A DNA stretch of 64,000 bases, from the NCBI GenBank assembly GCA_016184115.1, contig JACPDH010000077.1, positions 64,103-128,102 on the forward strand, in the 5' to 3' direction. The position numbers were made by a program, and so were the translations under genes. A model generated the notes under the pieces. That model was given only the letters and a program-made list of their open reading frames with translations, was not told the origin of the DNA and ran no database searches. Shown here piece by piece: positions 12,242 through 35,184 of the stretch. Each line of letters starts with the position of its first letter. Positions within the stretch are counted from its first letter, which is position 1. The stretch is from Acidobacteriota bacterium (GTDB taxonomy: Bacteria; Acidobacteriota; Thermoanaerobaculia; Gp7-AA8).

Positions 12242-13575
12242 GTGCAGTGCGCCGTGCCGCCCCGAGTGCGCGCGAGACAAGGTGGGCTCCGTTTCGTAGC
12301 GCGCGTGAGGCGCACCGCTGGCTCGAGTCGCTGCAAGGGAGCGGGATCCGTCCCGGGCTGATGCGCATGCGCGCGCTCCTTCGCGCCGCCGGCAATCCTC
12401 ATCGCGCGAACCCGACGGTGATCGTCGCAGGTACGAACGGCAAGGGCTCGACCTCCGCGACGCTCGCGTCGATCCTTCAGTGCGCTGGCCTGCTCACTGG
12501 ACTCTATACATCGCCGCATCTCGTCGGTATCCGGGAACGCTGGCGCGTCGGCGGACGCGACGTCTCCGCGGAGGCGCTGCTTCTTGCGATTGGCGAGCTC
12601 TATGCCGCGTCGCAGACGTGCGGGATCGAGCCGACATATTTCGAAGCGCTCACGGCGCTCGCGTTCATTGTCTTTCGCGACGCGAAGTGCGACATCGCGG
12701 TGCTCGAGGTTGGAATGGGGGGGCGGCTCGACGCGACGAACGTCACTCGTCCCCTCGCGGCGCTCATCACGCCGATCGCGATGGACCACCAGGAGTTTCT
12801 GGGTGACACCATCACCAGGATCGCAGGCGAAAAAGCGGGAGTGATCCACGGTGGATGTGCAGCGCTGACGTCGGTGAGCGACGAACGGGCGCTCGCTGTG
12901 ATCCGGAGGCGCGCGGGGAAGGCCGGCGCAACACTGGCCGAAACGGCGCGAGAATGTCGCGTGTCGCGCGTGGAACAGGATGCAGACGGCCTCGCGTTTC
13001 GCCTCGCCACGCCAGCGAATTCATACGATCTGCGAACGCCCCTCGCGGGGAAACACCAGTGCGACAACATTGCGCTTGCGGTGAGGGGAGCGGAGGAACT
13101 TCGCCAGCGCTTTCCAGGCCTCACGCGGAACGCGATCGTCGAAGGCGTTGCGAAAACGGTGTGGCGCGGGCGGCTCGAACGTTTCGAGTTGCCTCACGGA
13201 AGGGTCTGGGTGGACGGAGGACACAACGAGGATGCGATTCGAGCGATTCTTCCGTTCGTGGAGGAGTCGGTTCCGCTCCCTCGTTGCCTCGTATTCGGGA
13301 TCATGAAAGACAAGGACTGGGAAGCGGTTGCGAAGCTCGTCTTTCCGCTCTTCGACCGGATCATCCTAACCAAGCCTGACAGAGCGCGGGGATGCGAGCC
13401 GCGCGAGCTTGCGGGGCTCGTGACGCTCGACCGGCGTTACGTGACCGTGAGATCGAAGCCTGCCGACGCGGTCGCGCTGGCGCTCGAAGAATGCTGGCCC
13501 GCGACGCTCGTATGCGGCTCGCTCTACCTCGCCGGGGCGGCGATCGAGGTGCTGGATTCGGTGAAGCCGCGATAG
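12238..13575 (+). CDS. folC: Bifunctional folylpolyglutamate synthase / dihydrofolate synthase FolC
   Basis: Mur-ligase P-loop [12 protein letters not shown]. Conserved accD-folC synteny. Confidence 0.85.
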
Positions 13576-13715
13576 CGACTACGGCCTCCGGCCGTTATTG
13601 CGCCGCGAGAGCGACGCGTGAATCGAGCGAAATACGGCACTGCGGTTCAGCGGCGGCGGCGAGGCGCCTCCGCCACGACCCTTCAGCTACAATGCGCCGC
13701 GACGGAGACACGATC

Positions 13716-14999: not shown

Positions 15000-15773
15000 T
15001 CAGCCAGCCTGTTGCGCCACGGCTTTCGGTTTGAAGATCCGGTGTTTGTAGATCTTCTTCTTGTCCAGCTTGTAGTAGACCATCGTCTTCAGGATCTCGA
15101 GCCCGTAGCGGACGCTGCGCCAGAAACTGATCTGTGAGGCTTCTTCGAAATAACGGGTCTGAATCGGGACCTCGCGGAATTTCATCCCCGCGGCGACGCC
15201 CTGCGCGATGATCTCGGTGTCGAAGACGAAGTTGTCGGAGTTCGCTTCGAAGTTGACGGCGTCGAGGTATCGCTTCGAGTAGGCGCGGAAGCCGGAGTGG
15301 TACTCGGAGAGAAAGACGTAGAAGGTGGCGTTCTCGACGGCGGTCAGGAAGAGGTTTGCGAAGTACTTCCACTTCGGCATCCCTCCTTCGATCGGCCGGC
15401 CGCCCAGCATCCTCGAGCCGAACACCGCATCGCATTCGTCGTTGAGCAATGGCTGGACGAGGTGTGGAACGATCGTCGGGTCATACTGATGGTCGGGGTG
15501 GACCATGACCATGATCTCGCCGCCGAGCTCGTCCATGGCGGTGCGGTAGCAGGTCTTCTGGTTGCCGCCGTAGCCGCGGTTCTGCTTGTGGACGACCACG
15601 CGGATTCCGAGCTTCTGCGCGAGGGCGACGGTGCCGTCCTTCGAACAGTCGTCGACCAGGAGGATCTCGTCGACCCAATCCTTCGGGATGTCGTCGAGCG
15701 TTGCCGCCAACGTCTTCTCGGCGTTGTAGGCCGGCAGGACGACGACGACTTTTTTATTTCGTTTCTGGGGCAT
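15000..15773 (-). CDS. GT2 glycosyltransferase, DPM1/Ppm1/GtrB/CsbB-like polyprenyl-phosphate sugar synthase (soluble form)
   Basis: VVVVLPAYNAEKTL...VDDCSKDGT (DxD)...HPDHQYD. About 257 aa with no C-terminal TM. Start taken at MPQKRNKK. Divergent from the YfhO cluster. Confidence 0.7.
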   Translation of the reverse strand: MPQKRNKKVVVVLPAYNAEKTLAATLDDIPKDWVDEILLVDDCSKDGTVALAQKLGIRVVVHKQNRGYGGNQKTCYRTAMDELGGEIMVMVHPDHQYDPTIVPHLVQPLLNDECDAVFGSRMLGGRPIEGGMPKWKYFANLFLTAVENATFYVFLSEYHSGFRAYSKRYLDAVNFEANSDNFVFDTEIIAQGVAAGMKFREVPIQTRYFEEASQISFWRSVRYGLEILKTMVYYKLDKKKIYKHRIFKPKAVAQQAG

Positions 15774-15841
15774 CGAATAGTGCCCGATTGGGCGCGCAAA
15801 GGTTAGCACAGGGGCTCGCGTACGGTTACAATCCGCGCCGC

Positions 15842-18205
15842 TTGAGCCGGAGAAGACTGCGCACCGAGGCCGCCGCACTGACGCTGCTCGTCGTCGTCGT
15901 GTTGATGCCGTTTCTCGACGTCCTGTTTGCGTCGGGACGTTTCTACGTTCGCGACCTCACGCGCTACTACTACCCGACCAAGCAGATCCTCCGCGACATC
16001 GTCCTGCACGGCGAGTTTCCGTACTGGAACCGCCACTACTCGGCGGGGCAACCGATTGCCGCGAACCCCGAGTACGAGATCTTCTACCCGTTGCAGTGGC
16101 TGATCCTGCTTCCCGACTACGACCTCGGATACCGGCTCCACATCATCGTTCACATTCCGATCGCGGCGATCGGGATGTACCTGCTGTTGCGGTCGCTTCG
16201 ACTGCGGATCGCGGCTGCGTTCTTCGGCGCGATCGTGTTCGCGATCGGCGGCTTGTCGATGTCGATGATCAACCTGTTGCCGATCCTGTTCTGCGTCGTC
16301 TGGATACCATGGGTGCTCCTCTTTACGAGACGGTTCCTGCGCGCGCCTAACGTGCGTGATTTCGCGCTGGCAGCGTTCTTCCTGGGGATTGAGGGGCTCG
16401 TCGGAGAGCCGACGTCGATCATGCAGACGGCGTTCCTGATGTCGGCGTACGGGTTCTGGCGCGCGATGCGAAGCGAGCGGCGGTTGCTGACGCTCGCGCG
16501 CAACGCGCTGCTCGTCGGACTGATCGGAATCGCCGGCTTTCTCGGCGGTGCGGCCCAACTCGTTCCGGCAGTCGACCACGTCGGCGATTCGGTACGCTCG
16601 CGGCCGTTCGAGCTCGGACTCGTCACCACCTGGAGTATGCCGCCGGCGCGGCCGCTCGAGCTGATCTATCCGAATCTCTTCGGGCGGTTGTTCGACTCGC
16701 CAGGAGCGTACTGGGGTTCCGGGCTCTACCCGCGCACGGCGTCGCCGTTCATCTTCAGCATCTACCTCGGGTTGATCGCGGCGGCGATGATCATCGGCGC
16801 GGTCGCAGGGCGGGTGCGCGGGCTAGTACTGTCGGCCGCGGTCCTTCTCGCCATGTTGCCAATCGCACTCGGCGGAAACACGCCGCTTTTCGACGGACTC
16901 CACGCGCTCGGCCTAACGCAGTCGATTCGATACCCGGAGAAGTTCGCGTATGCGGGACTCTTCGCGCTTAACGTGCTCGCCGCGATCGCATTCGACCGGT
17001 ACCTGAGGCGCGACGCGCGAGTGCGTCGCGCTGCTGTCGTCTTTGCGGCGGCTTCCGCGGTCGCGGCCGCAGTCTTTTTCGTCGCGACATTCACGCCCTT
17101 CTACGAGCTCGTCGTGCAAAAGGTGTGGGGCATGACGCACCGAGGACGCGTGGAGGTTGCGATTGCCGTCGCGCGTGAAGGCTGGGGCCTCGCCGTGCTT
17201 CGAGGCTTCGCGGTCGCAGGACTGCTCGCAGTCGGATGGAAGCGACGACGGATCTCCTGGCACGCGGGCGCGATCATCCTCATGCTCGTCGACCTGACGC
17301 CGGTCGGATTCGACGTCCTGCCCAGGTTCCCCGCGAAGTTCTTCACGATACCGGAGGCGGCGGCGGAGCTCCCGAGAGGAGGCGAACCCTACCGGATCTT
17401 CCATGAGGCCGACTGGTACGGAGGCAGCCAGCCTTCGAGCTCTTACTTCGGCGTCGGAGCCGATGCGTACTGGGTCGTTCGCAACGGAGTCTTCCCGATG
17501 ACGCCTGCGACGTGGGGACTCGAGACTGTGCTCGAGCGCGATTACGACAAGACAGCGCTGCTTCCGACGGTCGACCTGGTCGACGCGATGTGGCGAGCGC
17601 GCGATGCCGGCGTCAAGAACTGGCGCGAGGTTTTCGGCTCCATGTCCAACGTGGCGTACATCGCCCAGTACCGCGGATTCGAGGATGAGAAGAAGCGGAT
17701 CAAGGGAAACTTCAAGAAGTCGCGCCCCGTCGACTTCGTTCCGCAGGACGCGTCTCCGCGCTACTACTTCGCGAGCCGTTTGATCGAGGCTCGGGACGCC
17801 GATGCGATGCTCCGGAGGCTCGTGAAGGGAGATTGGTGCCGCGACTGTGCCTACGTCGCTCGCGGTGCCGGTGTGCCTGCAGCGGGTCGCGTCGCGTCCG
17901 TGAAGGAGACGGCGAACCGTGCCCGGATTGAAGTCGAGGCTGACGGCGACGCCTTCCTCGTGATGAGCGTGACGCCGCACAAATACTGGAGCGCGCGGAT
18001 CGACGGGCGGTCGGTTCCGATCGAGATCGCGAACGTCGCCTACCAGGGCGTGCGCGTTCCGGCGGGCCGGCATGTCATCGAGGTCCAGTACCGGAACACG
18101 CTCATCGTAAAGGCGGCGGCGGTGTCAGGCACGGTGCTCGTGGGGCTGCTCATTGCCGCGTTTGCGGCGCGTGGGCGTCGCGCTACCGTAGAATTCGAGT
18201 CGTGA
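15842..18205 (+). CDS. YfhO-family (GT-C fold) integral membrane glycosyltransferase-like protein, paralog 1
   Basis: N-terminal motif RDLTRYYYPTKQ...YWNRHYSAGQP...NPEYEIFYPLQWL, multiple TM segments, C-terminal periplasmic YfhO-like signature TPHKYWSARIDGRSVPIEIANVAYQGVRVPAGRHVIEVQYRN. Start uncertain (TTG at 15842, or an ATG further downstream). Confidence 0.6.
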   Translation: MSRRRLRTEAAALTLLVVVVLMPFLDVLFASGRFYVRDLTRYYYPTKQILRDIVLHGEFPYWNRHYSAGQPIAANPEYEIFYPLQWLILLPDYDLGYRLHIIVHIPIAAIGMYLLLRSLRLRIAAAFFGAIVFAIGGLSMSMINLLPILFCVVWIPWVLLFTRRFLRAPNVRDFALAAFFLGIEGLVGEPTSIMQTAFLMSAYGFWRAMRSERRLLTLARNALLVGLIGIAGFLGGAAQLVPAVDHVGDSVRSRPFELGLVTTWSMPPARPLELIYPNLFGRLFDSPGAYWGSGLYPRTASPFIFSIYLGLIAAAMIIGAVAGRVRGLVLSAAVLLAMLPIALGGNTPLFDGLHALGLTQSIRYPEKFAYAGLFALNVLAAIAFDRYLRRDARVRRAAVVFAAASAVAAAVFFVATFTPFYELVVQKVWGMTHRGRVEVAIAVAREGWGLAVLRGFAVAGLLAVGWKRRRISWHAGAIILMLVDLTPVGFDVLPRFPAKFFTIPEAAAELPRGGEPYRIFHEADWYGGSQPSSSYFGVGADAYWVVRNGVFPMTPATWGLETVLERDYDKTALLPTVDLVDAMWRARDAGVKNWREVFGSMSNVAYIAQYRGFEDEKKRIKGNFKKSRPVDFVPQDASPRYYFASRLIEARDADAMLRRLVKGDWCRDCAYVARGAGVPAAGRVASVKETANRARIEVEADGDAFLVMSVTPHKYWSARIDGRSVPIEIANVAYQGVRVPAGRHVIEVQYRNTLIVKAAAVSGTVLVGLLIAAFAARGRRATVEFES

Positions 18206-20580
18206 CCTCCAATGAGAGCGCCGATCGTCGGCAGACGGCGAGAGCCTTCGCGTTCCTCGCAGCGCTCGTGGCCGTCGCATTCGCCGATCTCCTCGTTTTC
18301 GGCAGGCGGCTCTTCATACGCGATGTCGCGAATTTCTACTTCCCGACGAAGAAGCTGCTGCGGGAGGCGTGGCTCTCGGGCGACCTGCCACTCTGGAACC
18401 ACGCCTACTCGGCCGGACAGCCGATGGCGGCGAACCCCGAGTATGGGGCGTTCTATCCGCCTCATCTTCTGCTGCTTCTGCCCGACTACGCGTTCGCGTT
18501 CCAACTGCTGATCGTCGTTCACGTCGTGATCGGTGCGTGGGGCGCCTATCGTTTTCTTCGCTCGCTCGGGCTCCGCGAGTCGTCGAGTCTCTTCGGAGCG
18601 GTGACGTTCGCGTTTGGCGGGCTGACTGCGTCGCTCCTCAATCTGCTGCCTTACCTGTTTCTGCTGACCTGGCTCCCCTGGGCGTTTCTGCATGTGAGGC
18701 GTTGGTTGACCTCGGGCGGCTGGGGAGACATGGCGCTCGCGGCGCTCTTCCTTGGATTGCAGATTCTCACGGCGGAGCCGAGCACGCTGGTTCAAGTCTG
18801 GTTGCTCGTGGGGCTCTACGCGATGCATCGCGTCGCACGAGCCGAGCGCAAGCGCGACGCGATCGAGAGGATTGCGCCGCGAGTCGGCGTGCTGCTCGTC
18901 GCCGCAATCGCGGTCGGTGCGATCCAGCTTCTGCCTGCGATCGACCATGCGGGCGACTCGGTGCGTGCGGAGCCGTTTGCCTATAAAACGGTGCGAAGTT
19001 GGAGTATGCCGTCGATCAGGCCTGCGGAGGTCGCAATTCCAGGCGCTTTCGGCCGCGTCTGGCGAGAAACGGAGACCGCGTACTTTGGCGGGATCTTCTA
19101 TGCGCCTCGACCGCTGCCGTTTCTCTTCAGCGTCTACGCCGGGATGTTAGGCTGCTGTCTCGCGGTCGCCGGGATTCGGGCGAGGCTTCCTGGTACCGGC
19201 CTGCTGCTCGCGGTCGCGGCGCTTTCGTTCGTATTCGCGCTCGGTGACCATACGCCACTGCTCCGGTGGTTGTACGACGCGGGTATCGCGACCTCGTTCC
19301 GTTACGCGGAGAAGTTCGCGATCATGGGGCTTCTCGCGCTGATGGTCTACCAGGCGCGCGCGTTCGACGCGCTTCTCGACGATCCGCGCCGGATGGGACG
19401 CGCGGCCTCGGTTGCGGCGGCGCTCTGCCTCGCAGTGTCTCTGGGGGCGGTCGTCTTCTTCTCGTCGGCGCAGGGCCCCGACCTCGCGCGCTCGCTCACG
19501 GGGTTGGGGAGCGACGACGTGCTCGCGGCGATCGTTCGTGACGCGCGCGTCGACTGGACTGCGAATTCTCTGCGGGCCGCCGTGGCCCTCGCGCTTTGCG
19601 TGGCAGCGGCACGCGGGCGGGTGGGAAGGAAATGGGTGGCGGTCGCGATCGTGAGTGCGTTCGTCGATCTTGCCGTGGCATCTCGGGCCGTCGCGCCGTC
19701 GATCGAGCCGAGCTTCTACGATGAACCGCCTGCGGCTGCGCAGCTTGGCGACGACCGCCACGCATACAGAATCTTCCCGCTCGCGGATTGGTACGACACG
19801 TTCGGCCTCAGCGAGAACGGCCGTAGGTTCGCCGCGACGGGGAAAGGCGTTTACTGGACATGCCGGAACGGGCTTGCGCCGATGATTTCAGCCGCCTGGG
19901 GTTTTCGATATGCGATGGAGGTCGACTATGACCGGACGAACCTTCTGCCGGCGAAGCGCTTCGTCGAGGTCATGTGGCGCGTGCGTAACGAGGCTGGTGA
20001 GGCGCGCGACGCGACGCTGATGGCGATGGCGGGCACGCGCTACAAGACGAGGTTCCGCGACCACTCGAGAGCAACCGTGGCAGGCATGCGCGAAGAGTCG
20101 ATCGAACCGATCGAGCTCGAGCAAAAGGGAACGGGGGAGCGGTACTACTTCGCCGATCGGATCATCATCGCACGCGATGCGGAATCGATGGCTCGTTCGA
20201 TCATCGCGGTCGATCCCGGGCCACACGCGGCGTTTCTCCCGGAGGAAATGGCGGGGGTGGCGCCCGGAAAGGTGATCTCATGGAGAGAGACGTCTCGATC
20301 AATCGAGCTGGACGTCGACGCTTCCGGGAGGTCGTTGCTCGTGCTGAGCATCACCCCGCACCGCTACTGGCGCGCGAGCGTCGACGGCAAGCCGGCCCGG
20401 CTCCTCACCGTGAACACCGGATTCAGTGGCCTGTCGTTGGAGCGCGGAAGGCAGCGGGTACTGCTCGAGTACCGCAATCCCGTCGTGATTGCAGGCGCAG
20501 AGATCAGTCTCGTCGCCGTGCTTTGTCTCGGAACAATCGCGGTAGTCAGTGGCCGCAGGCGGCGCGAGCCGCTACGGTAG
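18202..20580 (+). CDS. YfhO-family membrane glycosyltransferase-like protein, paralog 2
   Basis: RDVANFYFPTKK...LWNHAYSAGQP...NPEYGAFYP; C-terminal ITPHRYWRASVDGKPARLLTVNTGFSGLSLERGRQRVLLEYRN. GTG start overlaps the paralog-1 stop (GTGA). Confidence 0.6.
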   Translation: MTSNESADRRQTARAFAFLAALVAVAFADLLVFGRRLFIRDVANFYFPTKKLLREAWLSGDLPLWNHAYSAGQPMAANPEYGAFYPPHLLLLLPDYAFAFQLLIVVHVVIGAWGAYRFLRSLGLRESSSLFGAVTFAFGGLTASLLNLLPYLFLLTWLPWAFLHVRRWLTSGGWGDMALAALFLGLQILTAEPSTLVQVWLLVGLYAMHRVARAERKRDAIERIAPRVGVLLVAAIAVGAIQLLPAIDHAGDSVRAEPFAYKTVRSWSMPSIRPAEVAIPGAFGRVWRETETAYFGGIFYAPRPLPFLFSVYAGMLGCCLAVAGIRARLPGTGLLLAVAALSFVFALGDHTPLLRWLYDAGIATSFRYAEKFAIMGLLALMVYQARAFDALLDDPRRMGRAASVAAALCLAVSLGAVVFFSSAQGPDLARSLTGLGSDDVLAAIVRDARVDWTANSLRAAVALALCVAAARGRVGRKWVAVAIVSAFVDLAVASRAVAPSIEPSFYDEPPAAAQLGDDRHAYRIFPLADWYDTFGLSENGRRFAATGKGVYWTCRNGLAPMISAAWGFRYAMEVDYDRTNLLPAKRFVEVMWRVRNEAGEARDATLMAMAGTRYKTRFRDHSRATVAGMREESIEPIELEQKGTGERYYFADRIIIARDAESMARSIIAVDPGPHAAFLPEEMAGVAPGKVISWRETSRSIELDVDASGRSLLVLSITPHRYWRASVDGKPARLLTVNTGFSGLSLERGRQRVLLEYRNPVVIAGAEISLVAVLCLGTIAVVSGRRRREPLR

Positions 20581-20592
20581 AATCCGGCGGCG

Positions 20593-22953
20593 ATGGCGGA
20601 AGCGGGTGACGTCACGGCGGAACGCCGGAACGACTTCTTGGCGATGGCGTTGCTGTCGCTCATTGTCACGGTCCTGTACGCGGACGTGCTCTTTCTCGGG
20701 GCGAACTTTTTCACACGCGATCTTACGATCTATCACTACCCGATGAAGTGGGTCGTGCGCGAGTTGATACTCGGCGGCGACTTCCCGTACTGGAACCGGC
20801 TCTACTCCGCAGGTCAGCCGCTCGCGGCAAACCCGGCGTACGAAGTCTTTTATCCGCTCCAATGGCTGACGCTCCTGCCCGACTACAATTTTGGTTTCCG
20901 TCTCCACATCGTGGCGCACGTCTTCATCGCGGTGATCGGGGCGTACCGTTTTCTCCGTTCTCTCGAGTTGGGAGCGCCCGCGAGCCTCGCAGGTGCAACG
21001 GCATTCGGGCTTTGCGGGCCGTACGTCTCGACGGTCAACCTGTTGCCGTTTCTATTCAGCGTCAGCTGGGCGCCGTGGATCGCCCTCTACGCGCGGCGCT
21101 GGCTCCTCGCGCGGAGAGCGCGCGACTTCGCGGCGGCGGGCCTCGTCCTCGGGATGCAGGCGATCGTCTGCGAGCCCGTGACGCTTCTCCAGACGTGGGG
21201 TGTCATCGTCCTGTACGCGATCGGTGCCGGCTGGAAGCAGGGAGTGCTACGCGGGGCGATGAGAGGCGTGGCGCGATCGATCGGCCTCGTTGCGACCGGC
21301 ATCGCAGTCGCCGCAGTCCAGTTTCTCCCCGCGATCGACCACGCGTACGACTCCGTTCGAGGCCGCGGCTTCGAGCTCTGGGTCGCCTCACGGTGGAGTG
21401 TCGCGCCCGTTCGCCTCATCGAGGAGATCTTCCCGAATGTGTTTGGCTCGTCGGAGGGGCTCGGGCGGCTCTACTGGGGACAGTTTCGATTCGGCATGGA
21501 AGCGGGCGGTCCGTTTCTCTACAGCATCTATTTGTCGGTCGCGATCGTAGCGCTCGTGGTTGCTGGAATGTGGGGACGCGTGGCAGGACGGGGATTGACG
21601 GCGCTCGTGGCGGTGCCTTCCATCGTGCTTTCCTTCGGCGCGCACACTCCGCTGCTTGCGCTGATGCACGGCGCGGGGCTGCTGCCGTCAGTCCGCTACC
21701 CGGAAAAATTCATGCTTGTCGCGTCGTTCGCGTTGCTGACTTACGCGGCGATCGTGTTCGACGCGATCGTCAAGGGTAACAGTGCGTTGGCACGAAGGGG
21801 GGCGTGGCTCTGCGCTGCGTCGGGCGTTGTCGCGGCGGTGGTGTTCATTCTTTGCTTCCAGCCCGGATATCCCGAATGGTTCATGGAGTTCTGGCGTCGT
21901 ACTGACAGGAGCGCCGCATTGATCGCGCGGACGCAGTGGTTCGTCTCGGCGATTCGGAGCATCGCGTTCGCGTTCGCCTTCGCGGCACTCGCGCGCGACA
22001 CGGGGAGGAAAGCGATCGCGCTCTTCGTGCTCTTTCTCGTCGCCGACCTCGCTCCTCTCGGCAATCAGATCAATCCCCGAATCGACCGGAGCTTTTTCGA
22101 CACGCCGCCGCCTCTCCTCGCGAAGCTCGACATGCGGGGCACGAGACTCGCCCACGTTGCCGCGTTGCAGTTAGGCTCGAACGAGCAGAAAGCGTACTTC
22201 AAGTCGTACCGGACCTATTGGACGCTGCGAAACGGGCTCTGGCCCTACTCTCCCGCGCTCTGGGGTGTTCCGACCTGTCTCGAGTACGACGTTGACGAGA
22301 CGCAGCTGACGGCGACGCGCGACGTGATCGAGCTAGCCGACGTACTGTCGAAGAGGGGGATCACGGATTGGATCCCGATCGTCGGAGCGTGGTGCGCATC
22401 GGGGCCGGTGCTCACCTACCGTCATCCGGCTGCCGAGTTGAAGCGAATCGGTGATCGCTGGGACGAGATCGAACCGGTCACGGTGGATCCGTTCGTGCGA
22501 TACCCGCGGTATTTTTTTGCATCAGAAGTGGTCGCGGCTGCCGACAATACGGTACTAGCGGACTTGCTCGTCGCGCGACCGAGGAGTCCGCGCACGGCGT
22601 TCGTGAGGGAGGGCGCGTGGCGAGCCGGGAATGGCAGAGTCGTTGCCGCGCAGGAATCGGCGAGTCGCACGTTGGTCGATGTCGACGCCGGCGAAGACGC
22701 GTTTCTCGTTCTCGCTTCGACCTGGCACAAGTACTGGCGCGCAACGGTTGATGGCAGACAGGTGGAGATTGTTCCGACAAACGTCGCATTCCAGGGAATC
22801 GCAATCCCGAAGGGGGTGCATCGCGTGGAACTGCGCTACAGCAACCCGCTCATCGCGGTCGGAGGATTCCTGAGCCTGATGGCGCTCGCGACGCTTGCGG
22901 TCGTTGCAATCCGCGGCAACGGAAGAGCGGTTGGCGTAGGAGCGAACGAATGA
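20593..22953 (+). CDS. YfhO-family membrane glycosyltransferase-like protein, paralog 3
   Basis: RDLTIYHYPMKW...YWNRLYSAGQP...NPAYEVFYPLQWL; C-terminal STWHKYWRATVDGRQVEIVPTNVAFQGIAIPKGVHRVELRYSN. Confidence 0.6.
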   Translation: MAEAGDVTAERRNDFLAMALLSLIVTVLYADVLFLGANFFTRDLTIYHYPMKWVVRELILGGDFPYWNRLYSAGQPLAANPAYEVFYPLQWLTLLPDYNFGFRLHIVAHVFIAVIGAYRFLRSLELGAPASLAGATAFGLCGPYVSTVNLLPFLFSVSWAPWIALYARRWLLARRARDFAAAGLVLGMQAIVCEPVTLLQTWGVIVLYAIGAGWKQGVLRGAMRGVARSIGLVATGIAVAAVQFLPAIDHAYDSVRGRGFELWVASRWSVAPVRLIEEIFPNVFGSSEGLGRLYWGQFRFGMEAGGPFLYSIYLSVAIVALVVAGMWGRVAGRGLTALVAVPSIVLSFGAHTPLLALMHGAGLLPSVRYPEKFMLVASFALLTYAAIVFDAIVKGNSALARRGAWLCAASGVVAAVVFILCFQPGYPEWFMEFWRRTDRSAALIARTQWFVSAIRSIAFAFAFAALARDTGRKAIALFVLFLVADLAPLGNQINPRIDRSFFDTPPPLLAKLDMRGTRLAHVAALQLGSNEQKAYFKSYRTYWTLRNGLWPYSPALWGVPTCLEYDVDETQLTATRDVIELADVLSKRGITDWIPIVGAWCASGPVLTYRHPAAELKRIGDRWDEIEPVTVDPFVRYPRYFFASEVVAAADNTVLADLLVARPRSPRTAFVREGAWRAGNGRVVAAQESASRTLVDVDAGEDAFLVLASTWHKYWRATVDGRQVEIVPTNVAFQGIAIPKGVHRVELRYSNPLIAVGGFLSLMALATLAVVAIRGNGRAVGVGANE

Positions 22954-24347
22954 GGTTGGTGAATCGGTGGTCGTCGTCATTTCGATGGGTCGTCGGGCTT
23001 GTGCTCGTCGTGTTCCTCGCGCTGATCGTTCTGACGTTCCGACTCTCGAAGCCTCTCGAGGATCGCACGTACGTTCCTTTGGAGGAAGTGATTACGCCGG
23101 AGATCACACTCCTCCAGGAGTACGTCCGGATCGACACGTCGAATCCTCCCGGCAGGGAGCTCGACGGCGCAAGGTTCCTCATCGCGGAGCTCGCACGCCG
23201 GGGAGTCACGGCGGAGTTGATCGAGTCGGCCCCCGGACGTGCGAACGTCTACGCTCGCATCAAAGGGAAACGCCGCGGTGACGGACTCTTGCTTTTGCAT
23301 CACATCGATGTCGTTCCGCCAGGAGCGGAGGGATGGAGCGAACCTCCCTTTGCCGCGAAGACGAAGGCGAACATGCTCTATGGCCGGGGCACGCTCGACA
23401 TGAAGTCCATTGGTATCAGCCACCTCCTCGCGTTCGCCGATCTCGCGGCGATGGAGAGCCCGCCTCAACGCGACGTCGTATTCCTCGCGGTCGCCGATGA
23501 GGAGGCGGGCGGTGCGTTAGGCGTCGCTTGGCTGCTCGCGAACCGTCCCGACGTGTTCGAAGATGTCGGCTTTGCACTGAACGAAGGTGGGATCAGCGAG
23601 ACGGCCGAGGAGAAGCCGCGCCTTTTCGGAATCGAAGTCGGCACGCGCCAGCTCGTCAACCTCTCCCTGAAGGCGCGTGAACGGAGGCCTCTCGAGCTGG
23701 CCCGCACGGCGCTCCTCCCGTTCCAGAACCCCCGCGATCCGGAGCGCATTCTTCCCGAGGTTCCGGGGATTCTGAGAAACGCCTCGATGTACCGGATCGA
23801 GAAACGCGAGCTTCTTGCCGACGTCGAAGCGACGATCGCGAACGGCGATTTCTTCCGCTTGAGCACGGTGGATCGCTCGCTCTTCTTCTCCGCGATGAGT
23901 CTCGACGGCGTGCTCGCGGCGCCTGAAGGCGGCTTCACCATGAACGTCGTTCTGAACAACCTGTCGGACGTCAATCCTGACGATGCGATTGCGCGCGTCA
24001 GGCAGATCGTCGATCGATTCGGCGTCGCGATTGAGGTGGTCAGCAAGCAGGGGCCGTCGCCGATCACACCGACAGACTCGCGACTCTTTGCGCTCATCAG
24101 CGAGGAGGTCCGCCGTTCGTACGGCGACGAAGTCTTCGTCGGGCCGATTATTCTTCCCTTCTCCTCGAACGACTCTCGCTACCTGCGCCCGCGCGGGATC
24201 CGCGCGTACGGCCTTAGTCCGTTTCCCGTGACTCTCTACCAGACGTGGGGGATTCACGGGAGCGATGAGCGAATCCGGCTCGACTGGTTCGTCGAAGGTG
24301 TGAAGCTCACACGCCGCGTGGTGGCGAGGTTCGCGATGGAGCAGTAA
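22950..24347 (+). CDS. Secreted M20-family metallopeptidase (ArgE/DapE/ACY1/CPG2-like), paralog a
   Basis: Signal/TM anchor. HHIDVVP, GRGTLDMKS, ADEEAGG motifs. ATGA overlap with the YfhO-3 stop. Confidence 0.75.
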   Translation: MRLVNRWSSSFRWVVGLVLVVFLALIVLTFRLSKPLEDRTYVPLEEVITPEITLLQEYVRIDTSNPPGRELDGARFLIAELARRGVTAELIESAPGRANVYARIKGKRRGDGLLLLHHIDVVPPGAEGWSEPPFAAKTKANMLYGRGTLDMKSIGISHLLAFADLAAMESPPQRDVVFLAVADEEAGGALGVAWLLANRPDVFEDVGFALNEGGISETAEEKPRLFGIEVGTRQLVNLSLKARERRPLELARTALLPFQNPRDPERILPEVPGILRNASMYRIEKRELLADVEATIANGDFFRLSTVDRSLFFSAMSLDGVLAAPEGGFTMNVVLNNLSDVNPDDAIARVRQIVDRFGVAIEVVSKQGPSPITPTDSRLFALISEEVRRSYGDEVFVGPIILPFSSNDSRYLRPRGIRAYGLSPFPVTLYQTWGIHGSDERIRLDWFVEGVKLTRRVVARFAMEQ

Positions 24348-24510
24348 TTTGCGCTGGTCGGCGACAAAAATCGTCACTCGGATCGTGCCGCACGCGGAAC
24401 GGACGCCCCAACGCATTTTGCGTCAAACGTTTAGCCTTCCGCAATCGTTGGTATGTTTCTTGAACTGCACCGCAGGCGGTATCCAACCGTAACAGGAGGA
24501 AAGGAATCTT

Positions 24511-25038
24511 ATGATGCGAATCTCTCGTAAGCAGAAGGGTTTCACGCTCATTGAGCTGCTGATCGTCGTGGCGATCATCGGCATTCTGGCTGCGATCGCC
24601 ATTCCGAACCTGCTCTCCGCGATGCAGCGGTCGAAGCAGAAGAGGACGATGGCAGACATGCGTTCCATCGCGACGGCGTGGGAGTCCTACGCAACGGACT
24701 ACAACGCCTACAACGCTGCTGGTCAGGCGAGCTCGCTCGACATGGCCGACTTCAGCACCTACAGTTTCGCGAGCCTCATCGCGCGTGTCTCGCCGACCTA
24801 CATTCGCGCTCTGCCCCAGAAGGACGGGTGGGGAAATGACTTCACGTACGCCATCGATAACTCCACCGCGCTCAAGGCTCAGGAGTACGTGATTCGTTCG
24901 TTCGGCAAGGACGGACTGGAATCCGAAGGCGGTTCCTACACGAATGGACCGCGCCACGTATTCGAGTGCGACATCGTCTTCACGATGGGCGCATACGTTT
25001 CGTATCCGGAAGGCGTTCAGCAGGCGAAGTCGGACTAA
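24511..25038 (+). CDS. Type IV pilin-like protein (prepilin-type N-terminal cleavage/methylation domain)
   Basis: Leader MMRISRKQKG then mature FTLIELLIVVAIIGILAAIAIP (Phe+1, Glu+5). S/T/Y-rich C-terminal half. RBS AGGAGGA upstream. Confidence 0.8.
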   Translation: MMRISRKQKGFTLIELLIVVAIIGILAAIAIPNLLSAMQRSKQKRTMADMRSIATAWESYATDYNAYNAAGQASSLDMADFSTYSFASLIARVSPTYIRALPQKDGWGNDFTYAIDNSTALKAQEYVIRSFGKDGLESEGGSYTNGPRHVFECDIVFTMGAYVSYPEGVQQAKSD

Positions 25039-25068
25039 CGCTGACTCTCTTCTCTAGTCTTGTAGTGG

Positions 25069-25096
25069 AAAAGGGCGCCCTCGGCGCCCTTTTTCC
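25069..25096 (+). terminator. Rho-independent terminator after the pilin-like gene
   Basis: AAGGGCGCCC-tcg-GCGCCCTT followed by TTTCC. Confidence 0.7.
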
Positions 25097-25234
25097 TTAT
25101 GGACCGGGTCCGAGGACCGCGTTGTCGTTGTGTCGTGTTCCGTCGATCGCCTGCTATTCGCTGCAGCGGAATCGAGTCGATCGCCGCGCCGCTCGTCGTC
25201 GACGATGCCGATCATTCGTTATACTTCGCGCTGA

Positions 25235-26632
25235 ATGCGCCGCCTCTCTGGAATTGCTCTCATCCTCTTCGTGCTGAGCTTCGCGCAGAACTGTCGCGAG
25301 GCGGAAGCGGTTTCCGAGTCGCCGTTCGACAAGGAAGCCCAGAGTTACTTCATCGACTATCTGAAGATCGACACCTCGAACCCTCCCGGGAACGAGACCA
25401 CTGGCGCGGAGTTCCTTCGCGCAATCCTCGCGAAAGAAGGGATTGACGCAAAGCTCGTGGGACCCGACGCCGCGCGCAAATCGGTCTGGGCGCGACTCGA
25501 ATCGGGGAGCAGCAAGCCTGCGCTCCTGCTCATGCACCACATCGACGTGGTTCCGGTCGCTGAGAAGGAGTGGAGCGTCGCTCCGTTCTCCGGTGAGAAA
25601 GCGAACGGCTACATCTGGGGACGTGGCGCGCTCGACATCAAGTCGCTCGGAATCGCCCACCTCATGGCGATCATCGACATTAAGCGGCGAGGCGTGCCAC
25701 TCGACCGCGATATCGTGTTCCTTGGGGTAGCCGATGAGGAGACCGGCGGTAAGGCCGGCGTTCAGGCGCTGCTCGAACGGCAGCCCGAGCTCTTCAAAGG
25801 AGTCGGGTTCGTGCTCAACGAAGGTGGCGCAAATATTACGGTGGTCGATCGCATCGAGTCTTGGGGGATCGAAGTCGATCAAAAAGTTCCACTCTGGCTC
25901 CGCCTCACGGCGAAGGGCGAAGGGGGGCACGCGGCGATGCCTCCGCCGGATGGTGGAGCGACGCGAAAGCTGATCGAAGCCGCCTCCGCGGTCAGTGCCA
26001 TTCCGATGCGTACGGAACTGCACCCTTCGGTCGAGACATTCTTCAAATCGATCGCGCCGACCAAGCCGGGCAAGCGCGGGCAGGTGCTCTCCGATCCCCG
26101 ACGGCACATTGGTACTCCGCAGATCGCGGAGCTTCCGTACGGGCTTCAACTGCTTCTTCGCGACACGCTCGTGCTCACGCGACTCGAGGCGGGTACTTCG
26201 ACGAATGCGGTGCCTGACATCGCGACCGCAGATGTCGACATCAGGCTGTTGCCAGGCAGCGACCCATCGGATCTCATCCGACAGGTTAAGCAGGTCGTCG
26301 GTTCGCTTGCGGAGGTCGAGGTGCTGCTCAGCGGGCCGACCGCCCCTGCGTCGCCGGTCGATACCGAGTTATACACCGCGCTCGAAAAGGTGCTGCGCAG
26401 CGCCGCGCCTAAGTCGAAAGTGGGACCGATGGTTTCCGCGGGCACGACCGACAGCCGCTACTTCAGACGGCGCGGTATCGTCGCCTATGGTTTCTCACCG
26501 TTCAAGGTCAACTACTACGACGGCGCGACTGTCCACGGCTCTGACGAAAGGATCCGCATCCGCTTTTTCCTCGAAGGAGTGGCGCTGACGCGGCAGATCG
26601 TGAGCAGTTTCTGCGCCCGCAAGGCCGCATGA
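25235..26632 (+). CDS. Secreted M20-family metallopeptidase, paralog b
   Basis: Signal peptide MRRLSGIALILFVLSFA. MHHIDVVP, GRGALDIKS, ADEETGG. Same length (465 aa) as paralog a. Confidence 0.75.
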   Translation: MRRLSGIALILFVLSFAQNCREAEAVSESPFDKEAQSYFIDYLKIDTSNPPGNETTGAEFLRAILAKEGIDAKLVGPDAARKSVWARLESGSSKPALLLMHHIDVVPVAEKEWSVAPFSGEKANGYIWGRGALDIKSLGIAHLMAIIDIKRRGVPLDRDIVFLGVADEETGGKAGVQALLERQPELFKGVGFVLNEGGANITVVDRIESWGIEVDQKVPLWLRLTAKGEGGHAAMPPPDGGATRKLIEAASAVSAIPMRTELHPSVETFFKSIAPTKPGKRGQVLSDPRRHIGTPQIAELPYGLQLLLRDTLVLTRLEAGTSTNAVPDIATADVDIRLLPGSDPSDLIRQVKQVVGSLAEVEVLLSGPTAPASPVDTELYTALEKVLRSAAPKSKVGPMVSAGTTDSRYFRRRGIVAYGFSPFKVNYYDGATVHGSDERIRIRFFLEGVALTRQIVSSFCARKAA

Positions 26633-28779
26633 CGCGGCCGGCGTGGCGCCTGGCGGTGATCGCTGTCGTCGCGCTCGCTCCTTTTCTTCCGATGCTCGTG
26701 CGCGGCGAAGTGCCCGCGTTCCGCGACCATCGCGACTACTTCATTCCTCTTCGCGAAGCGACCGCCGAGGCGCTTCGGTCACACGAGCTTCCGCTCTGGA
26801 ATGCGCTCAGCGGCTCCGGCGAGCCGTGGCTCGCGAACCCGCAGACGGGCGTGTTCTATCCGCCGGCCTGGATACCGGCAGTACTCCCGTTCGAGATTGG
26901 ATACGTTCTCTTTCTCGCGCTCCATCTGGCAATTGCGGGATGGGGCTGGCGCCGCCTCATGATGCGGTGGACGGGTGACAGCGTGGCCACCCTCTCCGCC
27001 TGCGCGCTGATGCTCTCCGGTCCGATGCTCTCGCTTCTCGACGTTTCGAACTCGCTCGGCACCTTCGCGTGGATTCCGCTCCTACTTTCGTTTGCCCTCG
27101 AAGGGCGGCAGGATCGCGGCGCCGCGCGCGATGCGATCACGATCGCGCTCTGCTTTCTGGGCGGGGAACCGCTGCTCGCCCTGATCGCAGCAATTCTCTA
27201 TTCGGGCATCAGACTCCTCCGTGAAGGAGTTGCCGCGGCGCGGCCCGTAGCGGGCGTGGCGATCGTGTCGTTCCTCCTTTGCGGCGTGCAGCTACTTCCC
27301 TTCGTCGAGAGTCTCCGCGACAGCGACCGGTCTGCGGGACTCGAGGCCACGTCGTCGCTCGCTCACTCGCTGGCTCCTGTCGATTGGCTTCGCATGGCGG
27401 TTTCTCCGATGGCACCCGGAGATCGCTCCGTTGCGATGGGCTCCCAGCAGTTTCTCCCGTCGATCTATGTCACGCCGCTTCTTGCGCTTCTGCCATTTGC
27501 GGTGCCGTTGCTCTGGCATCGTGGGAGGTTACCTCGACGAGCCTGCGCCGGGCTTCTTCTGCTCCTCGTCGCGTCGGCGTTTCTCGCGGCCGGCTCGAGC
27601 ATGGCGCTGTCTTCGCGCGTCTATATGCTGCTGGGCCTCGCGGTGAATCGATACCCCGTCAAGCTCGCGTTGTTCGGAGTGCTCGCACTCGTTGCGCTCG
27701 GAACCATCTGCCTCGACCGCCTCCTCGACAGCCCGCGGCGAGACGCCTGTTGGGCGATCGCAGGCGTCGCGTTCGCCGCGACGATCCCATTCCTCGCCGC
27801 GGTCTCGGCCGGCGGCCACGCGGCCACGCTGCTGGCGGGCTGGGTCGTGCTGCTTGCCATTGCCGTCATCGCGAGACCGCCGCGAGTCTGGGTGGTTGCC
27901 GTCCTTGCGCTCGCGGTGTGCGCGGATTCGATCGCGTCGTCGCGGTTTCTGCTCGGATCACGCCCGCACACCTCCTCGATCACTCCGCACGCCGAGCTCA
28001 TGAGGAGGGACAGAAAAGTCGCTCGCCTCGAGCAGCTCGACGTGCTCATTGATCCAGCAGCGAGTCGGGCGAGCCGCGAGTCATGGCTTGGTGGTTACCT
28101 CAATCTTCGCAACGGACAGCCTGACGCGATGACGGCTGCTCCGGTCGTCGACGCGCACTACCTCGTACTCCTCGACTACGCGCTCTCTCGACCGCGACTC
28201 GACATCCTCGACGTGATCGGCGTTGGGTATCTCCTGACCATGCGGCAATTCGACGCTCCAGGGTTCCGTCAGATCGGCGAGCGTGACGGAGTGCGAATCT
28301 ACGAGCGCGATGCGGCGTTCCCGCCCGTCACGATCTGGGAGAGTCATGCGGTTGCGCGCGACCGCGACGACGCGTTCGCGTTGCTCTGGGGTGAATCGTG
28401 GAACGCGACGACGCGAATCGTCGTGACGGGCAGCGCTCCGGCACCTCTTCATGCCGCGGCCGCAGGCCCAGTGGGAACGGGGCGCGTCGTCGCAACGACC
28501 TGGCGGTCGCTAAGCGTTTCGGTGGAGTCGCCGCGGGGCGGCATTGCGGTCGTCACTCAGCGTGCGGCTCCTGGTTGGCGTGTCGTTGTCGATGGGTCTC
28601 CTCGAGAGGCTCTGCTCGTCGATGGCGTCTTTCGCGGTGTCGCGGTTCCAGCGGGCAGGCACACTGTAGTTTGGAGCTATGAGCCGCGATCGTTCGTCGC
28701 TGGCGCGGCCCTTTCGTTCACCGGTGCCGCGATCATCGCAGGCGCCCTCATTCGGCGTCGTCGGACTCGCCGCGCCTAG
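26629..28779 (+). CDS. YfhO-family membrane glycosyltransferase-like protein, paralog 4 (most divergent)
   Basis: RDHRDYFIPLRE...LWNALSGSGEPWLANPQTGVFYP. Multi-TM; C-terminal periplasmic region. 4-nt overlap with the M20b stop. Confidence 0.5.
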   Translation: MTRPAWRLAVIAVVALAPFLPMLVRGEVPAFRDHRDYFIPLREATAEALRSHELPLWNALSGSGEPWLANPQTGVFYPPAWIPAVLPFEIGYVLFLALHLAIAGWGWRRLMMRWTGDSVATLSACALMLSGPMLSLLDVSNSLGTFAWIPLLLSFALEGRQDRGAARDAITIALCFLGGEPLLALIAAILYSGIRLLREGVAAARPVAGVAIVSFLLCGVQLLPFVESLRDSDRSAGLEATSSLAHSLAPVDWLRMAVSPMAPGDRSVAMGSQQFLPSIYVTPLLALLPFAVPLLWHRGRLPRRACAGLLLLLVASAFLAAGSSMALSSRVYMLLGLAVNRYPVKLALFGVLALVALGTICLDRLLDSPRRDACWAIAGVAFAATIPFLAAVSAGGHAATLLAGWVVLLAIAVIARPPRVWVVAVLALAVCADSIASSRFLLGSRPHTSSITPHAELMRRDRKVARLEQLDVLIDPAASRASRESWLGGYLNLRNGQPDAMTAAPVVDAHYLVLLDYALSRPRLDILDVIGVGYLLTMRQFDAPGFRQIGERDGVRIYERDAAFPPVTIWESHAVARDRDDAFALLWGESWNATTRIVVTGSAPAPLHAAAAGPVGTGRVVATTWRSLSVSVESPRGGIAVVTQRAAPGWRVVVDGSPREALLVDGVFRGVAVPAGRHTVVWSYEPRSFVAGAALSFTGAAIIAGALIRRRRTRRA

Positions 28780-34746: not shown

Positions 34747-34748
34747 CC

Positions 34749-35162: not shown

Positions 35163-35184
35163 CGATCGAAGAGGGGCGGAGAGG

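Follow-up and report, generated by a model that had tools for sequence, protein, structure and literature searches.

Among the systems closest to the locus described here is CsbB/GtcA/YfhO of Bacillus subtilis, Staphylococcus aureus and Listeria monocytogenes, in which a GT2 gene likewise adjoins the gene for a YfhO-family GT-C enzyme and the flippase gene is likewise located elsewhere. YfhO has a multi-TM N-terminal domain, a large extracytoplasmic domain and a last TM helix, a layout described for the B. subtilis protein (PMC5836110), and the characterised acceptors of YfhO enzymes are mostly glycopolymers (PMC5836110, PMC8035078). The streptococcal GtrB/PgtC2 and PgfS/PgfM1/PgfE/PgfM2 systems also combine a GT2 with one or two YfhO-family GT-C enzymes, and there PgtC2 and PgfM1/M2 O-glycosylate Ser/Thr-rich extracytoplasmic regions of proteins (PMC12041528). 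In the Pgf case the genes for substrates (Cnm and others) lie in the same cluster as the enzymes. The pilin glycosylation accessory genes of Pseudomonas aeruginosa encode TfpW, a polytopic enzyme of the GT-C type, or TfpO (PilO). The gene for TfpW adjoins pilA, that of the major pilin, and the enzyme takes its sugar from a polyprenyl-P-monosaccharide donor made by cytoplasmic enzymes and glycosylates Ser/Thr in the surface loops of the pilin (bioRxiv 10.1101/2020.04.19.049825). The glycosylation genes beside pilA vary between strains. A final point of comparison is ArnC/ArnD/ArnT, a trio of GT2, hydrolase and GT-C that recurs in diderm bacteria. FlmF2/NaxD/FlmK and LgmA/LgmC/LgmB are lipid A amino-sugar modification trios too, and the hydrolases of the Arn, Flm and Lgm sets are sugar deacylases of other folds that act on the lipid-linked sugar.

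The window, by which we mean the whole 64-kb stretch of DNA that was analysed, contains at positions 15000-28779 a cluster in which the gene for a TM-less GT2 is joined by those for four full-length paralogs of the YfhO family, a pair of periplasmic M20 metallohydrolases and a single prepilin, arranged as follows.

15000..15773, minus strand: GT2 glycosyltransferase, 257 aa, PF00535; candidate polyprenyl-phosphate sugar synthase that would supply a lipid-linked donor
15774..15841, no strand: divergent intergenic region between GT2 and YfhO1, 68 nt, sequence read
15842..18205, plus strand: YfhO paralog 1, ~787 aa (the maximal ORF, from TTG 15701, is 834 aa)
18202..20580, plus strand: YfhO paralog 2, 792 aa, GTGA overlap with paralog 1
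20593..22953, plus strand: YfhO paralog 3, 786 aa, starting 12 nt past paralog 2
22950..24347, plus strand: M20a metallohydrolase, 465 aa, N-terminal membrane anchor, predicted periplasmic, ATGA overlap with YfhO3
24511..25038, plus strand: type IV pilin / GspG-like prepilin, 175 aa, own transcription unit, candidate acceptor
25235..26632, plus strand: M20b metallohydrolase, 465 aa, N-terminal signal-peptide-like leader
26629..28779, plus strand: YfhO paralog 4, 716 aa, the most divergent, ATGA overlap with M20b

All the genes named in an earlier note on this DNA lie where that note had placed them, with one amendment. Paralog 1 had been given as 834 aa, which is the maximal ORF and would overlap the GT2 gene. 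Because the ortholog at another locus (L001) has 787 aa, translation of YfhO1 probably begins at TTG 15842; the divergent spacer between it and the GT2 ATG, read directly in the sequence at 15773, is 68 nt long (about 70 bp in the earlier note). A sigma-70-like element (TTAGCA-18-TACAAT, 15803-15832, plus strand), recognised purely as a consensus match, lies in this spacer. The earlier note had also described paralogs 1-3 as a tandem coupled through GTGA and ATGA overlaps. This holds for YfhO1 and YfhO2, which share GTGA at 18202-18205, but YfhO2 and YfhO3 are separated by a 12-nt spacer and the ATGA overlaps join YfhO3 to M20a (22950-22953) and M20b to YfhO4 (26629-26632).

Comparison with the systems above suggests a glycosylation system of a type already known in a setting that is new. 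Unlike the hosts of CsbB/GtcA/YfhO, the organism is an uncultured diderm acidobacterium (class Thermoanaerobaculia), of a group in which teichoic acids are not known; its GT2 is without membrane helices, there are four paralogs in place of one, a periplasmic M20 hydrolase is coupled to them, a type IV pilin is embedded in the cluster, and only the C-terminal ~75 residues resemble the Pfam model. In contrast to the streptococcal Pgf system there is no epimerase, the place of the sortase-anchored adhesin is taken by a type IV pilin as candidate substrate, and the M20 partner is without a counterpart. TfpW ends in a TPR domain and has an Emb-like proline motif, whereas the paralogs have a YfhO beta-sandwich, and TfpO is an O-antigen-ligase-type enzyme; by Pfam and NCBIfam profiles, none of the paralogs has a TPR, Wzy_C or O-antigen-ligase domain. 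The accessory genes of P. aeruginosa lie downstream of pilA, whereas here they are upstream, and no M20 hydrolase is found there. The resemblance to TfpW, TfpO/PilO and PglL is one of position and mechanism only. The structural and sequence comparisons of the cluster proteins did bring up ArnT and ArnC as neighbours, but the hydrolase here, predicted to face the periplasm, belongs to the M20 family, which normally cleaves peptide or N-acyl-amino-acid bonds, and the GT-C proteins are not of the PMT_2/ArnT type.

The assignment of the four large proteins to the YfhO type is supported by Pfam, since paralogs 1 to 4 score 38.0, 41.7, 29.3 and 44.8 bits against PF09586, each exceeding the gathering threshold of 28.5 bits. 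These matches are restricted to the last ~75 residues, which align with positions ~758-835 of the 835-position model. PF09586 is precomputed on most database homologs, and the 100 %-identical database entry, from an "Acidobacteria bacterium" MAG, carries the NCBI name "YfhO family protein". PgfM1 and PgfM2 were the sole NCBIfam models matched by the paralogs, weakly, at the C-terminus only and far under their cut-offs, the best being PgfM2 with paralog 3 (E 8e-7). The four proteins align end to end, with 39, 38 and 27 % identity to paralog 1 for paralogs 2, 3 and 4. As had been proposed, the fourth is the more divergent, and in a neighbor-joining (NJ) tree it falls in a separate clade of "post-M20" copies. 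YfhO1 groups in this tree with single-copy genes and is orthologous to the form that most of the class carries in a single copy; the YfhO3 clade is limited to 5 loci.

A shared N-terminal motif in hydrophobic proteins could be a low-complexity artefact of TM segments. This is ruled out here, for RD, WN, GQP, ANP and FYP are invariant across 60 homologs, the predicted model places the motif in the first periplasmic loop (residues ~32-95), and conservation of the paralogs peaks in this loop (52-66 % identity between paralogs 1-3) and is lowest in the periplasmic domains (~30 %). Even paralog 4 retains the invariant RD, WN, NP and FYP. R40-D41 (paralog 2 numbering), at the start of loop 1, is invariant in the 60 homologs and all four paralogs. 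Its Asp is a conserved acidic residue such as GT-C enzymes carry in the first extracytoplasmic loop, and it is a candidate counterpart of the catalytic Asp of ArnT and PglB.

Hydropathy and an AF2 model of paralog 2 match the YfhO layout, which has ~13 TM helices and a big extracytoplasmic domain between the last two: a TM/loop region (1-500), a periplasmic helical and beta-sandwich domain (501-758) and a final TM helix (760-788). A PDB sequence search with the paralogs gave zero matches, there being no solved YfhO structure, and it is the predicted structure that ties the N-terminal, putatively catalytic module to GT-C. The model gives paralog 2 a high-confidence GT-C fold, with AftD, AftA and ArnT as the best structural neighbours.

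The GT2 matches PF00535 with 80.7 bits. Its best NCBIfam matches, AglJ (E 3.9e-24), PpgS (E 4.8e-18) and Dol-P-hexose transferase, are all far under the equivalog cut-offs; its best PDB sequence match is the Dol-P-Man synthase of P. furiosus (5mlz, E 2.6e-9), and ArnC is also among the nearest families. The description of this protein as DPM1/GtrB-like is borne out to the extent that its closest relatives are polyprenyl-phosphate sugar synthases. We regard it as a candidate for such an activity. Several features count against this assignment: the low scores, the lack of any hydrophobic segment or TM helix in a hydropathy scan, the missing GacJ-like partner, and HPD in place of DXD, which is 94-99 % conserved in 80 orthologs. 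No GtrA/GacJ/GtcA-type flippase gene is linked, as had been noted, the only small multi-TM ORF of the 64-kb window being MntP (206-769). This is not unusual, because in Bacillus and Staphylococcus, too, gtcA lies apart from csbB-yfhO (PMC8035078).

Close relatives of the cluster all come from the Thermoanaerobaculia, and its gene order was compared among 79 species-level loci of this class. The order GT2, YfhO (1-3 copies), M20, pilin (1-3 copies) is near-universal, and species differ in YfhO copy number (1 to 3, plus extras). The GT2 gene adjoins the YfhO run in 69 of the 70 related loci, although its orientation flips (36 on the plus and 33 on the minus strand). The M20 and pilin genes, previously seen as interleaved in the cluster, are core, class-wide parts of it and not bystanders. 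The gene order is thus common across the Thermoanaerobaculia, one half of what the earlier note had said would refute its reading; as for the other half, prior characterisation, a literature search returned no mention of YfhO together with Acidobacteria, which points to a cluster not yet characterised.

Both M20 proteins appear to be exported, as had been suggested. M20a (Peptidase_M20, 90.6 bits) has a TM segment at 14-32 by hydropathy; M20b (Peptidase_M20, 105.8 bits, and M20_dimer) has an N-terminal hydrophobic leader that looks signal-peptide-like in the translation, and the hydropathy scan found no TM segment in this protein. M20a orthologs are ~50 % identical across the class, whereas M20b, 34-37 % identical to M20a, is present only in the window's sub-clade (~12 loci). 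Across 89 M20a/M20b sequences, the metal ligands and catalytic Asp/Glu of the M20 family (H118, D120, D150, E184, E185, E212, H436) each reach 95 % conservation or more. At 43 of 74 YfhO-M20 junctions the M20 start codon is no more than 8 nt from the YfhO stop, and stop/start overlaps far exceed the ~10-15 % expected by chance, a rough figure that was estimated and not computed. The overlaps and the conserved residues argue for a YfhO-M20 unit, in which M20a is the class-wide partner of YfhO.

These data bear on the suggestion that the paralogs are not active glycosyltransferases, serving instead in lipid-carrier handling, as scaffolds or as pseudoenzymes, or that the cluster is a syntenic accident without common function. 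We consider this very improbable. The C-terminal confinement of the similarity to the YfhO model, the empty PDB search and the equal synteny of neighbouring housekeeping genes would be compatible with it, but it must contend with the confidently predicted GT-C fold, the invariance of the loop 1 charged residues, a GT2 adjacency that survives inversions and the excess of YfhO-M20 overlaps.

That the remaining gene encodes a type IV pilin-like protein is confirmed by matches to N_methyl (42.8 bits) and T2SSG (31.7 bits) and by the motif G|FTLIE, the sole prepilin motif in the window. Under NCBIfam it matches GspG (E 2.6e-21) and Myxococcus PilA (E 4.3e-17), both under the cut-offs, and, weakly, HpsB, a polysaccharide-secretion pseudopilin; its PDB sequence matches are the PilA proteins of Geobacter, Myxococcus and Thermus, and GspG. 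The model shows a helix at 13-63, and the variable loops contain 27-31 % Ser/Thr compared with 13 % elsewhere, a surface-loop enrichment that is not specific. The gene is a separate transcription unit, set off by a gap of ~150 nt. It directly follows M20a in 56 of the 56 loci with enough sequence, and look-ups seeded with the pilin return the same locus. A PilT/PilU ATPase (TIGR01420, 405 bits against a cut-off of 319) adjoins the pilin in most relatives and is absent beside it in the window, whose clade has M20 + YfhO pairs on both flanks of a pilin without a pilT neighbour. Elsewhere the slot right after the pilin is taken by an STT3 oligosaccharyltransferase (L086), a PMT_2 GT-C (L035), a GT87 GT-C (L090) or a sulfotransferase with PAPS synthase (L057). 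Adjacency to the pilin alone is nevertheless weak evidence, because the whole ~20-kb neighbourhood, including accD, folC, glyA, ruvX and yceG, is syntenic across the class.

Because of this region-wide synteny the link to the pilin may be incidental, and the same enzymology might serve a glycan acceptor (LPS core or O-antigen, capsule, EPS), in the manner of Gtr O-antigen glucosylation, ArnT or the YfhO glycosylation of teichoic acids. The pilin would then be near the cluster through synteny alone, or would belong to a pseudopilus for polysaccharide export, and the HpsB match, although weak, would fit. YfhO enzymes of Bacillus, Listeria and Staphylococcus do work on teichoic acids (PMC5836110; PMC8035078), the nearest structures, AftD, AftA and ArnT, target glycans or lipid A, and the paralogs carry a C-terminal beta-sandwich, an extracellular carbohydrate-binding domain having been speculated for S. 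aureus YfhO (PMC8035078). Two observations weigh against a glycan acceptor, which we think unlikely, though a serious contender: the 64-kb window is otherwise free of polysaccharide genes (Wzx, Wzy, Wza, initiating transferases), and the pilin stays with the cluster where the pilT linkage is broken. The STT3-family enzyme beside the pilin in L086 points the same way, since enzymes of this family are known to act on proteins only.

If the acceptor is protein, it need not be a single one. General O-glycosylation of Ser/Thr-rich regions in many periplasmic, membrane and surface proteins, with the pilin as at most one substrate, would follow PgtC2 and PgfM1/M2, which have multiple protein substrates (PMC12041528), and an expansion of paralogs with divergent periplasmic domains would suit several acceptor classes. 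The conserved site beside one pilin family and the accessory GT-C genes found there favour a dedicated target, and we judge the general system improbable.

As a whole, these results suggest that the most likely role of the cluster is to glycosylate, outside the cytoplasm, some target at the cell surface, which may be the pilin. A GT2 + GT-C extracytoplasmic glycosylation system for which the pilin is the favoured acceptor is the best explanation, and we give it about an even chance of being right; the adjacent pilin as the acceptor is in itself a tentative preference, a little short of that. What the analysis establishes is the families and folds, the coupling of the genes and the synteny across the class; the lipid-sugar chemistry and the place of action follow by inference, and the pilin as acceptor is a hypothesis. 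We infer each step from family membership and context. The GT2 would place a single sugar, from a nucleotide sugar, on undecaprenyl phosphate at the inner membrane face, and the lipid-sugar would cross the membrane via an unlinked flippase. The YfhO-type enzymes would then pass the sugar to a periplasmic acceptor, using the invariant Arg-Asp of loop 1. Sharing a common donor side and differing mainly in their periplasmic domains, the four paralogs would probably differ in the acceptor site or linkage that they serve. The periplasmic M20, translationally coupled to YfhO, would belong with it in one functional unit, and this explanation assigns it no role. On the hypothesis of a pilin acceptor, the Ser/Thr-rich surface loops would be O-glycosylated. 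The "multi-specificity" put forward in the earlier note is a conjecture: the cluster has one GT2, and one donor sugar is therefore the simpler expectation, while the number of paralogs varies within the class.

A wider reading, which we think less likely than not, is that of a class-wide glycosylation island around the type IV pilin, in which YfhO GT-C enzymes, one GT2 and a dedicated periplasmic M20 O-glycosylate the major pilin, and lineage-specific YfhO, STT3, PMT_2, GT87 and sulfation genes diversify the pilus glycan. If the pilin is the target, this diversification would parallel the pilin glycosylation islands of Pseudomonas and Neisseria, with different enzymes. If the island reading is true, it would be without precedent in three respects: as a function of the YfhO family in diderms, as YfhO-dependent glycosylation of a pilin and as a pairing of GT-C and M20 enzymes. 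Studies of the family have so far been confined to Firmicutes, with teichoic acids and streptococcal surface proteins as targets, and acceptors are known for almost none of the more than 70,000 cluster representatives that the subfamily profile finds in public data. The conserved hydrolase partner is missing from existing models of GT2 + GT-C systems, and the natural series of one to four paralogs lends itself to the study of how GT-C acceptor specificity diverges. The cluster offers a concrete acceptor candidate, the pilin, in an abundant and almost uncultured class of soil and sediment bacteria.

The cluster is bounded by glyA and the gene for RNase R, and its gene order was derived from the ORF listing, third-position GC and scans with Pfam and NCBIfam models. 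In window positions the genes are as follows.

15000-15773, minus strand: GT2, 257 aa
15842-18205 (maximal ORF from 15701), plus strand: YfhO1, about 787 aa
18202-20580, plus strand: YfhO2, 792 aa
20593-22953, plus strand: YfhO3, 786 aa
22950-24347, plus strand: M20a, 465 aa
24511-25038, plus strand: prepilin, 175 aa
25235-26632, plus strand: M20b, 465 aa
26629-28779, plus strand: YfhO4, 716 aa
28868-29176: small Fis-type HTH gene, 3' of YfhO4
29206-31446: RNase R, after the HTH gene

All of the genes in the cluster as first described are real, but the length of paralog 1 and the identity of the overlapping gene pairs required revision. Initiation of YfhO1 at the TTG at 15842 yields 787 aa, the same length as the ortholog in L001, a related locus from another genome, and this start leaves a divergent spacer of 68 nt between YfhO1 and GT2, which begins with an ATG at 15773. 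When the junctions were read directly, GTGA was found at YfhO1/YfhO2 (18202-18205), a 12-nt spacer between YfhO2 and YfhO3, and ATGA at both YfhO3/M20a (22950-22953) and M20b/YfhO4 (26629-26632). Promoter and terminator scans gave results no better than those from shuffled sequence and have descriptive value only.

Some neighboring genes may be mentioned here. The maximal glyA ORF of 533 aa carries an Arg/Ala-rich N-terminal extension of ~105 codons (window 13392-13706, plus strand) that overlaps folC; because glyA orthologs are 426-433 aa long, translation probably begins close to 13707. On the other side of the cluster, genes for a MoxR-like AAA_5 ATPase, a 137-aa ORF, a VWA-domain protein and a subtilase (S8) follow one another with short gaps (33157-38021, plus strand), in what looks like an operon. 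An ORF of 564 aa (38059-39753, minus strand) has coding-like codon bias and neither a Pfam match nor a hydrophobic segment. For a 160-aa ORF (39950-40432, plus strand) the match is limited to the C-terminal ~70 residues of GRDB (glycine/sarcosine/betaine reductase selenoprotein B); the ORF may be a fragment, or an in-frame UGA (selenocysteine) may interrupt the gene.

The four large proteins were assigned to the YfhO family in the earlier note, and all four exceed the Pfam YfhO gathering score, with the match confined to the last ~75 residues. The only NCBIfam matches, weak and C-terminal, were to PgfM1 and PgfM2, which are streptococcal YfhO-family enzymes. The paralogs can be aligned over their full length with 27-39% identity, and hydropathy indicates a polytopic N-terminal half, then a hydrophilic region of ~260 residues and a final TM helix. 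Because no YfhO structure has been solved, the fold was taken from prediction. An AlphaFold2 model of paralog 2, made with 60 homologs, reached a pLDDT of 91.2 and a pTM of 0.92, and Foldseek matched it in the PDB to the GT-C enzymes AftD, ArnT, AftA, AglB, EmbA/B, PglB, STT3 and Pmt4, bearing out the proposed GT-C fold. A search of PDB sequences with a profile built from the four paralogs found no match at E <= 1. The shared N-terminal motif (RD, WN, GQP, ANP, FYP) proved to be invariant across the 60 homologs and maps to periplasmic loop 1 in the model. This loop is the best-conserved segment among the paralogs (52-66%), and conservation is lowest in the periplasmic C-terminal domains (about 30%), a pattern that would fit enzymes with a common donor chemistry, diverging on the acceptor side.

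The nearest NCBIfam models to GT2 (AglJ, PpgS and Dol-P-hexose transferase) describe polyprenyl-phosphate sugar synthases, and its nearest PDB sequences are P. furiosus DPMS (5mlz) and ArnC. Its model scores fall far under every equivalog cut-off. In the alignment with DPMS, HPD stands in place of the DAD motif, with His for the first Asp of DXD; the segment HPDHQYDP (residues 92-99; DADLQ in the Dol-P-Man synthase) is 94-99% conserved in 80 GT2 orthologs. A hydropathy scan found no hydrophobic segment in GT2. GT2 enzymes without TM helices that depend on a second protein in the membrane are known from the GacI/GacJ type (PMC8035078); no gene for a GtrA/GacJ-type small membrane protein was found in the 64-kb window. 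A second, unrelated GT2 of 396 aa with GT21-like similarity (47160-48350, plus strand) adjoins a TPR protein 18 kb downstream, and no evidence ties it to the cluster.

The earlier note had proposed that the four paralogs serve several specificities. Their divergence stands, but multi-specificity is still conjectural, and since the cluster holds one GT2 the use of one donor is the more economical assumption. In a rough NJ tree, YfhO1 groups with single-copy genes, the clades of YfhO2 and YfhO3 are small and limited to 5-6 loci, and YfhO4 belongs to a separate clade of genes that follow M20. Other lineages show YfhO expansions of their own, and some relatives (L002, L011, L013, L016 and L055) have a second GT2 between YfhO and M20.

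For comparison, one genome per species was scanned, which yielded 228 relatives, and the window proteins were mapped onto the best 79 loci, all from Thermoanaerobaculia or Acidobacteriota MAGs. The order is nearly invariant: accD, folC, glyA and a cysG-like gene, then GT2, one to three YfhO genes, M20 and one to three pilin genes. YfhO lies directly 5' of M20a in 70/75 loci, GT2 is ahead of the YfhO run in 69/70 (36 on the plus and 33 on the minus strand), and the pilin is immediately 3' of M20a in all 56 loci with enough sequence. The YfhO run contains one copy in 39 loci, two in 13 and three in 13. A start codon lies <=8 nt from the preceding stop at 43 of 74 YfhO-M20 junctions and 33 of 48 YfhO-YfhO junctions; the chance level is roughly 10-15% by our own, uncomputed estimate. 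In most loci the next genes after the pilin are a Zn-ribbon gene and pilT, each in convergent orientation to it, followed by ruvX and yceG; the sub-clade of the window has M20b, YfhO4, the HTH gene and RNase R instead. Across the class, the Zn-ribbon protein (~207 aa; L004:15007-16787, minus strand, and equivalents) invariably accompanies the PilT/PilU ATPase beside the pilin. Two further genes, present in many relatives and absent from the window, are a shorter YfhO-like gene of 602 aa on the opposite strand between folC and glyA (L005:3648-5456, minus strand) and a 498-aa gene ahead of GT2 (L005:7679-9175, plus strand) that weakly matches the putative glycosyltransferase family of Leptospira LA_3751/LA_3752. 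The gene order is therefore common in Thermoanaerobaculia; as to whether it is also already characterised, a literature search found no paper linking YfhO with Acidobacteria.

A hydropathy scan places a membrane anchor at residues 14-32 of M20a, and the translation of M20b begins with a signal-peptide-like leader, so that both are predicted to lie outside the cytoplasm. The M20 metal and catalytic residues are each at least 95% conserved across 89 sequences, and identity among M20a orthologs is about 50% over the class, compared with about 37% for the YfhO proteins. The nearest solved relatives, DapE, ArgE and aminoacylase-1, do not reveal the substrate, and the best 120 matches to M20a are all from Thermoanaerobaculia, with no out-group and no characterised relative among them. 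The bonds that M20 enzymes normally hydrolyze are peptide or N-acyl-amino-acid bonds. Because of this bond type and the predicted periplasmic location, a role as sugar deacetylase, by analogy with ArnD, NaxD and LgmC, was rejected as unsupported.

The prepilin, the only one in the window, combines a canonical prepilin motif with a globular domain resembling GspG. Foldseek with its model (pLDDT 80) gave weak matches, the best to GspG (3gn9, E 0.012), and did not separate a T2SS pseudopilin from a T4 pilin; the best 120 matches to the globular domain were again all from Thermoanaerobaculia, with neither an out-group nor a characterised relative. No pilT is present within the 64-kb window, but a bona fide PilT/PilU ATPase adjoins the pilin in most relatives, a neighborhood that favors a type IVa pilus subunit.

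Might this pilin be the acceptor? Adjacency alone is weak evidence, because ~20 kb including housekeeping genes is syntenic. An acceptor that is a glycan instead has to be considered, and seems to us somewhat less likely than the pilin. Three observations raise the standing of the pilin. In the clade of the window the link between pilin and pilT is broken, yet the pilin has been kept with the glycosylation genes, flanked on each side by an M20 and YfhO pair. Look-ups seeded with the pilin return the same locus. Finally, insertions right after the pilin are often another glycosylation or glycan-modification gene; the others are RHS genes or a transposase.

L086:8533-10287 and L087:5939-7693, minus strand (GCA_038040385.1, an Acidobacteriota MAG): STT3-family oligosaccharyltransferase, 584 aa, convergent with and directly after the pilin; Pfam 37.5 bits against a cut-off of 24.5, NCBIfam archaeo_STT3 E 2.6e-44
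L035:5243-7084, minus strand: PMT_2 GT-C in the post-pilin slot; 29.5 against 26.1
L090:56-2810, plus strand: four tandem pilin genes
L090:2983-4242, minus strand: GT87-family GT-C after the four pilins, with an RHS toxin-like gene; 50.6 bits against 25
L057:9885-11639 and L057:11636-12508, minus strand: bifunctional ATP-sulfurylase/APS-kinase and sulfotransferase, ~1.8-4.5 kb downstream of the last pilin
L034 and L062: SGNH-like hydrolase after the pilin

Outside Campylobacterota and Desulfobacterota, few studies of bacterial STT3/PglB homologs are known. The L057 genes may point to sulfation of a glycan or protein in that lineage. A precedent for the pairing of a GT-C enzyme with a pilin is TfpW, encoded beside pilA, in pilin glycosylation of P. 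aeruginosa. The cyanobacterial pilin glycosyltransferase Ogt was considered as a relative and set aside; the words GT-C, PMT and transmembrane do not occur in the paper on it. Two variable segments of the pilin contain 27-31% Ser/Thr, compared with 13% elsewhere in the protein, a composition that is compatible with O-glycosylation but unspecific. A further precedent comes from streptococci, in which YfhO-family enzymes O-glycosylate Ser/Thr-rich protein regions (PMC12041528). A general protein glycosylation system seems to us improbable here. An N-X-S/T sequon ('NG[ST]') near the C-terminus of many relatives' pilins was dropped as evidence, since the window pilin lacks it and reads 'TMGAY'. 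On balance, the pilin is the acceptor of YfhO-dependent glycosylation that we tentatively favor.

As a whole, the cluster is best read as a GT2 plus GT-C extracytoplasmic glycosylation system, which is already a known kind, and its proteins had been auto-annotated as YfhO family; a database protein identical to YfhO2, from an 'Acidobacteria bacterium' MAG, is named 'YfhO family protein'. What is new is the setting in a diderm class without known teichoic acid synthesis, the conserved, translationally coupled periplasmic M20 partner of YfhO, the repeated lineage-specific expansion of YfhO paralogs, and a type IV pilin embedded in the cluster, at a locus on which several GT-C families converge.
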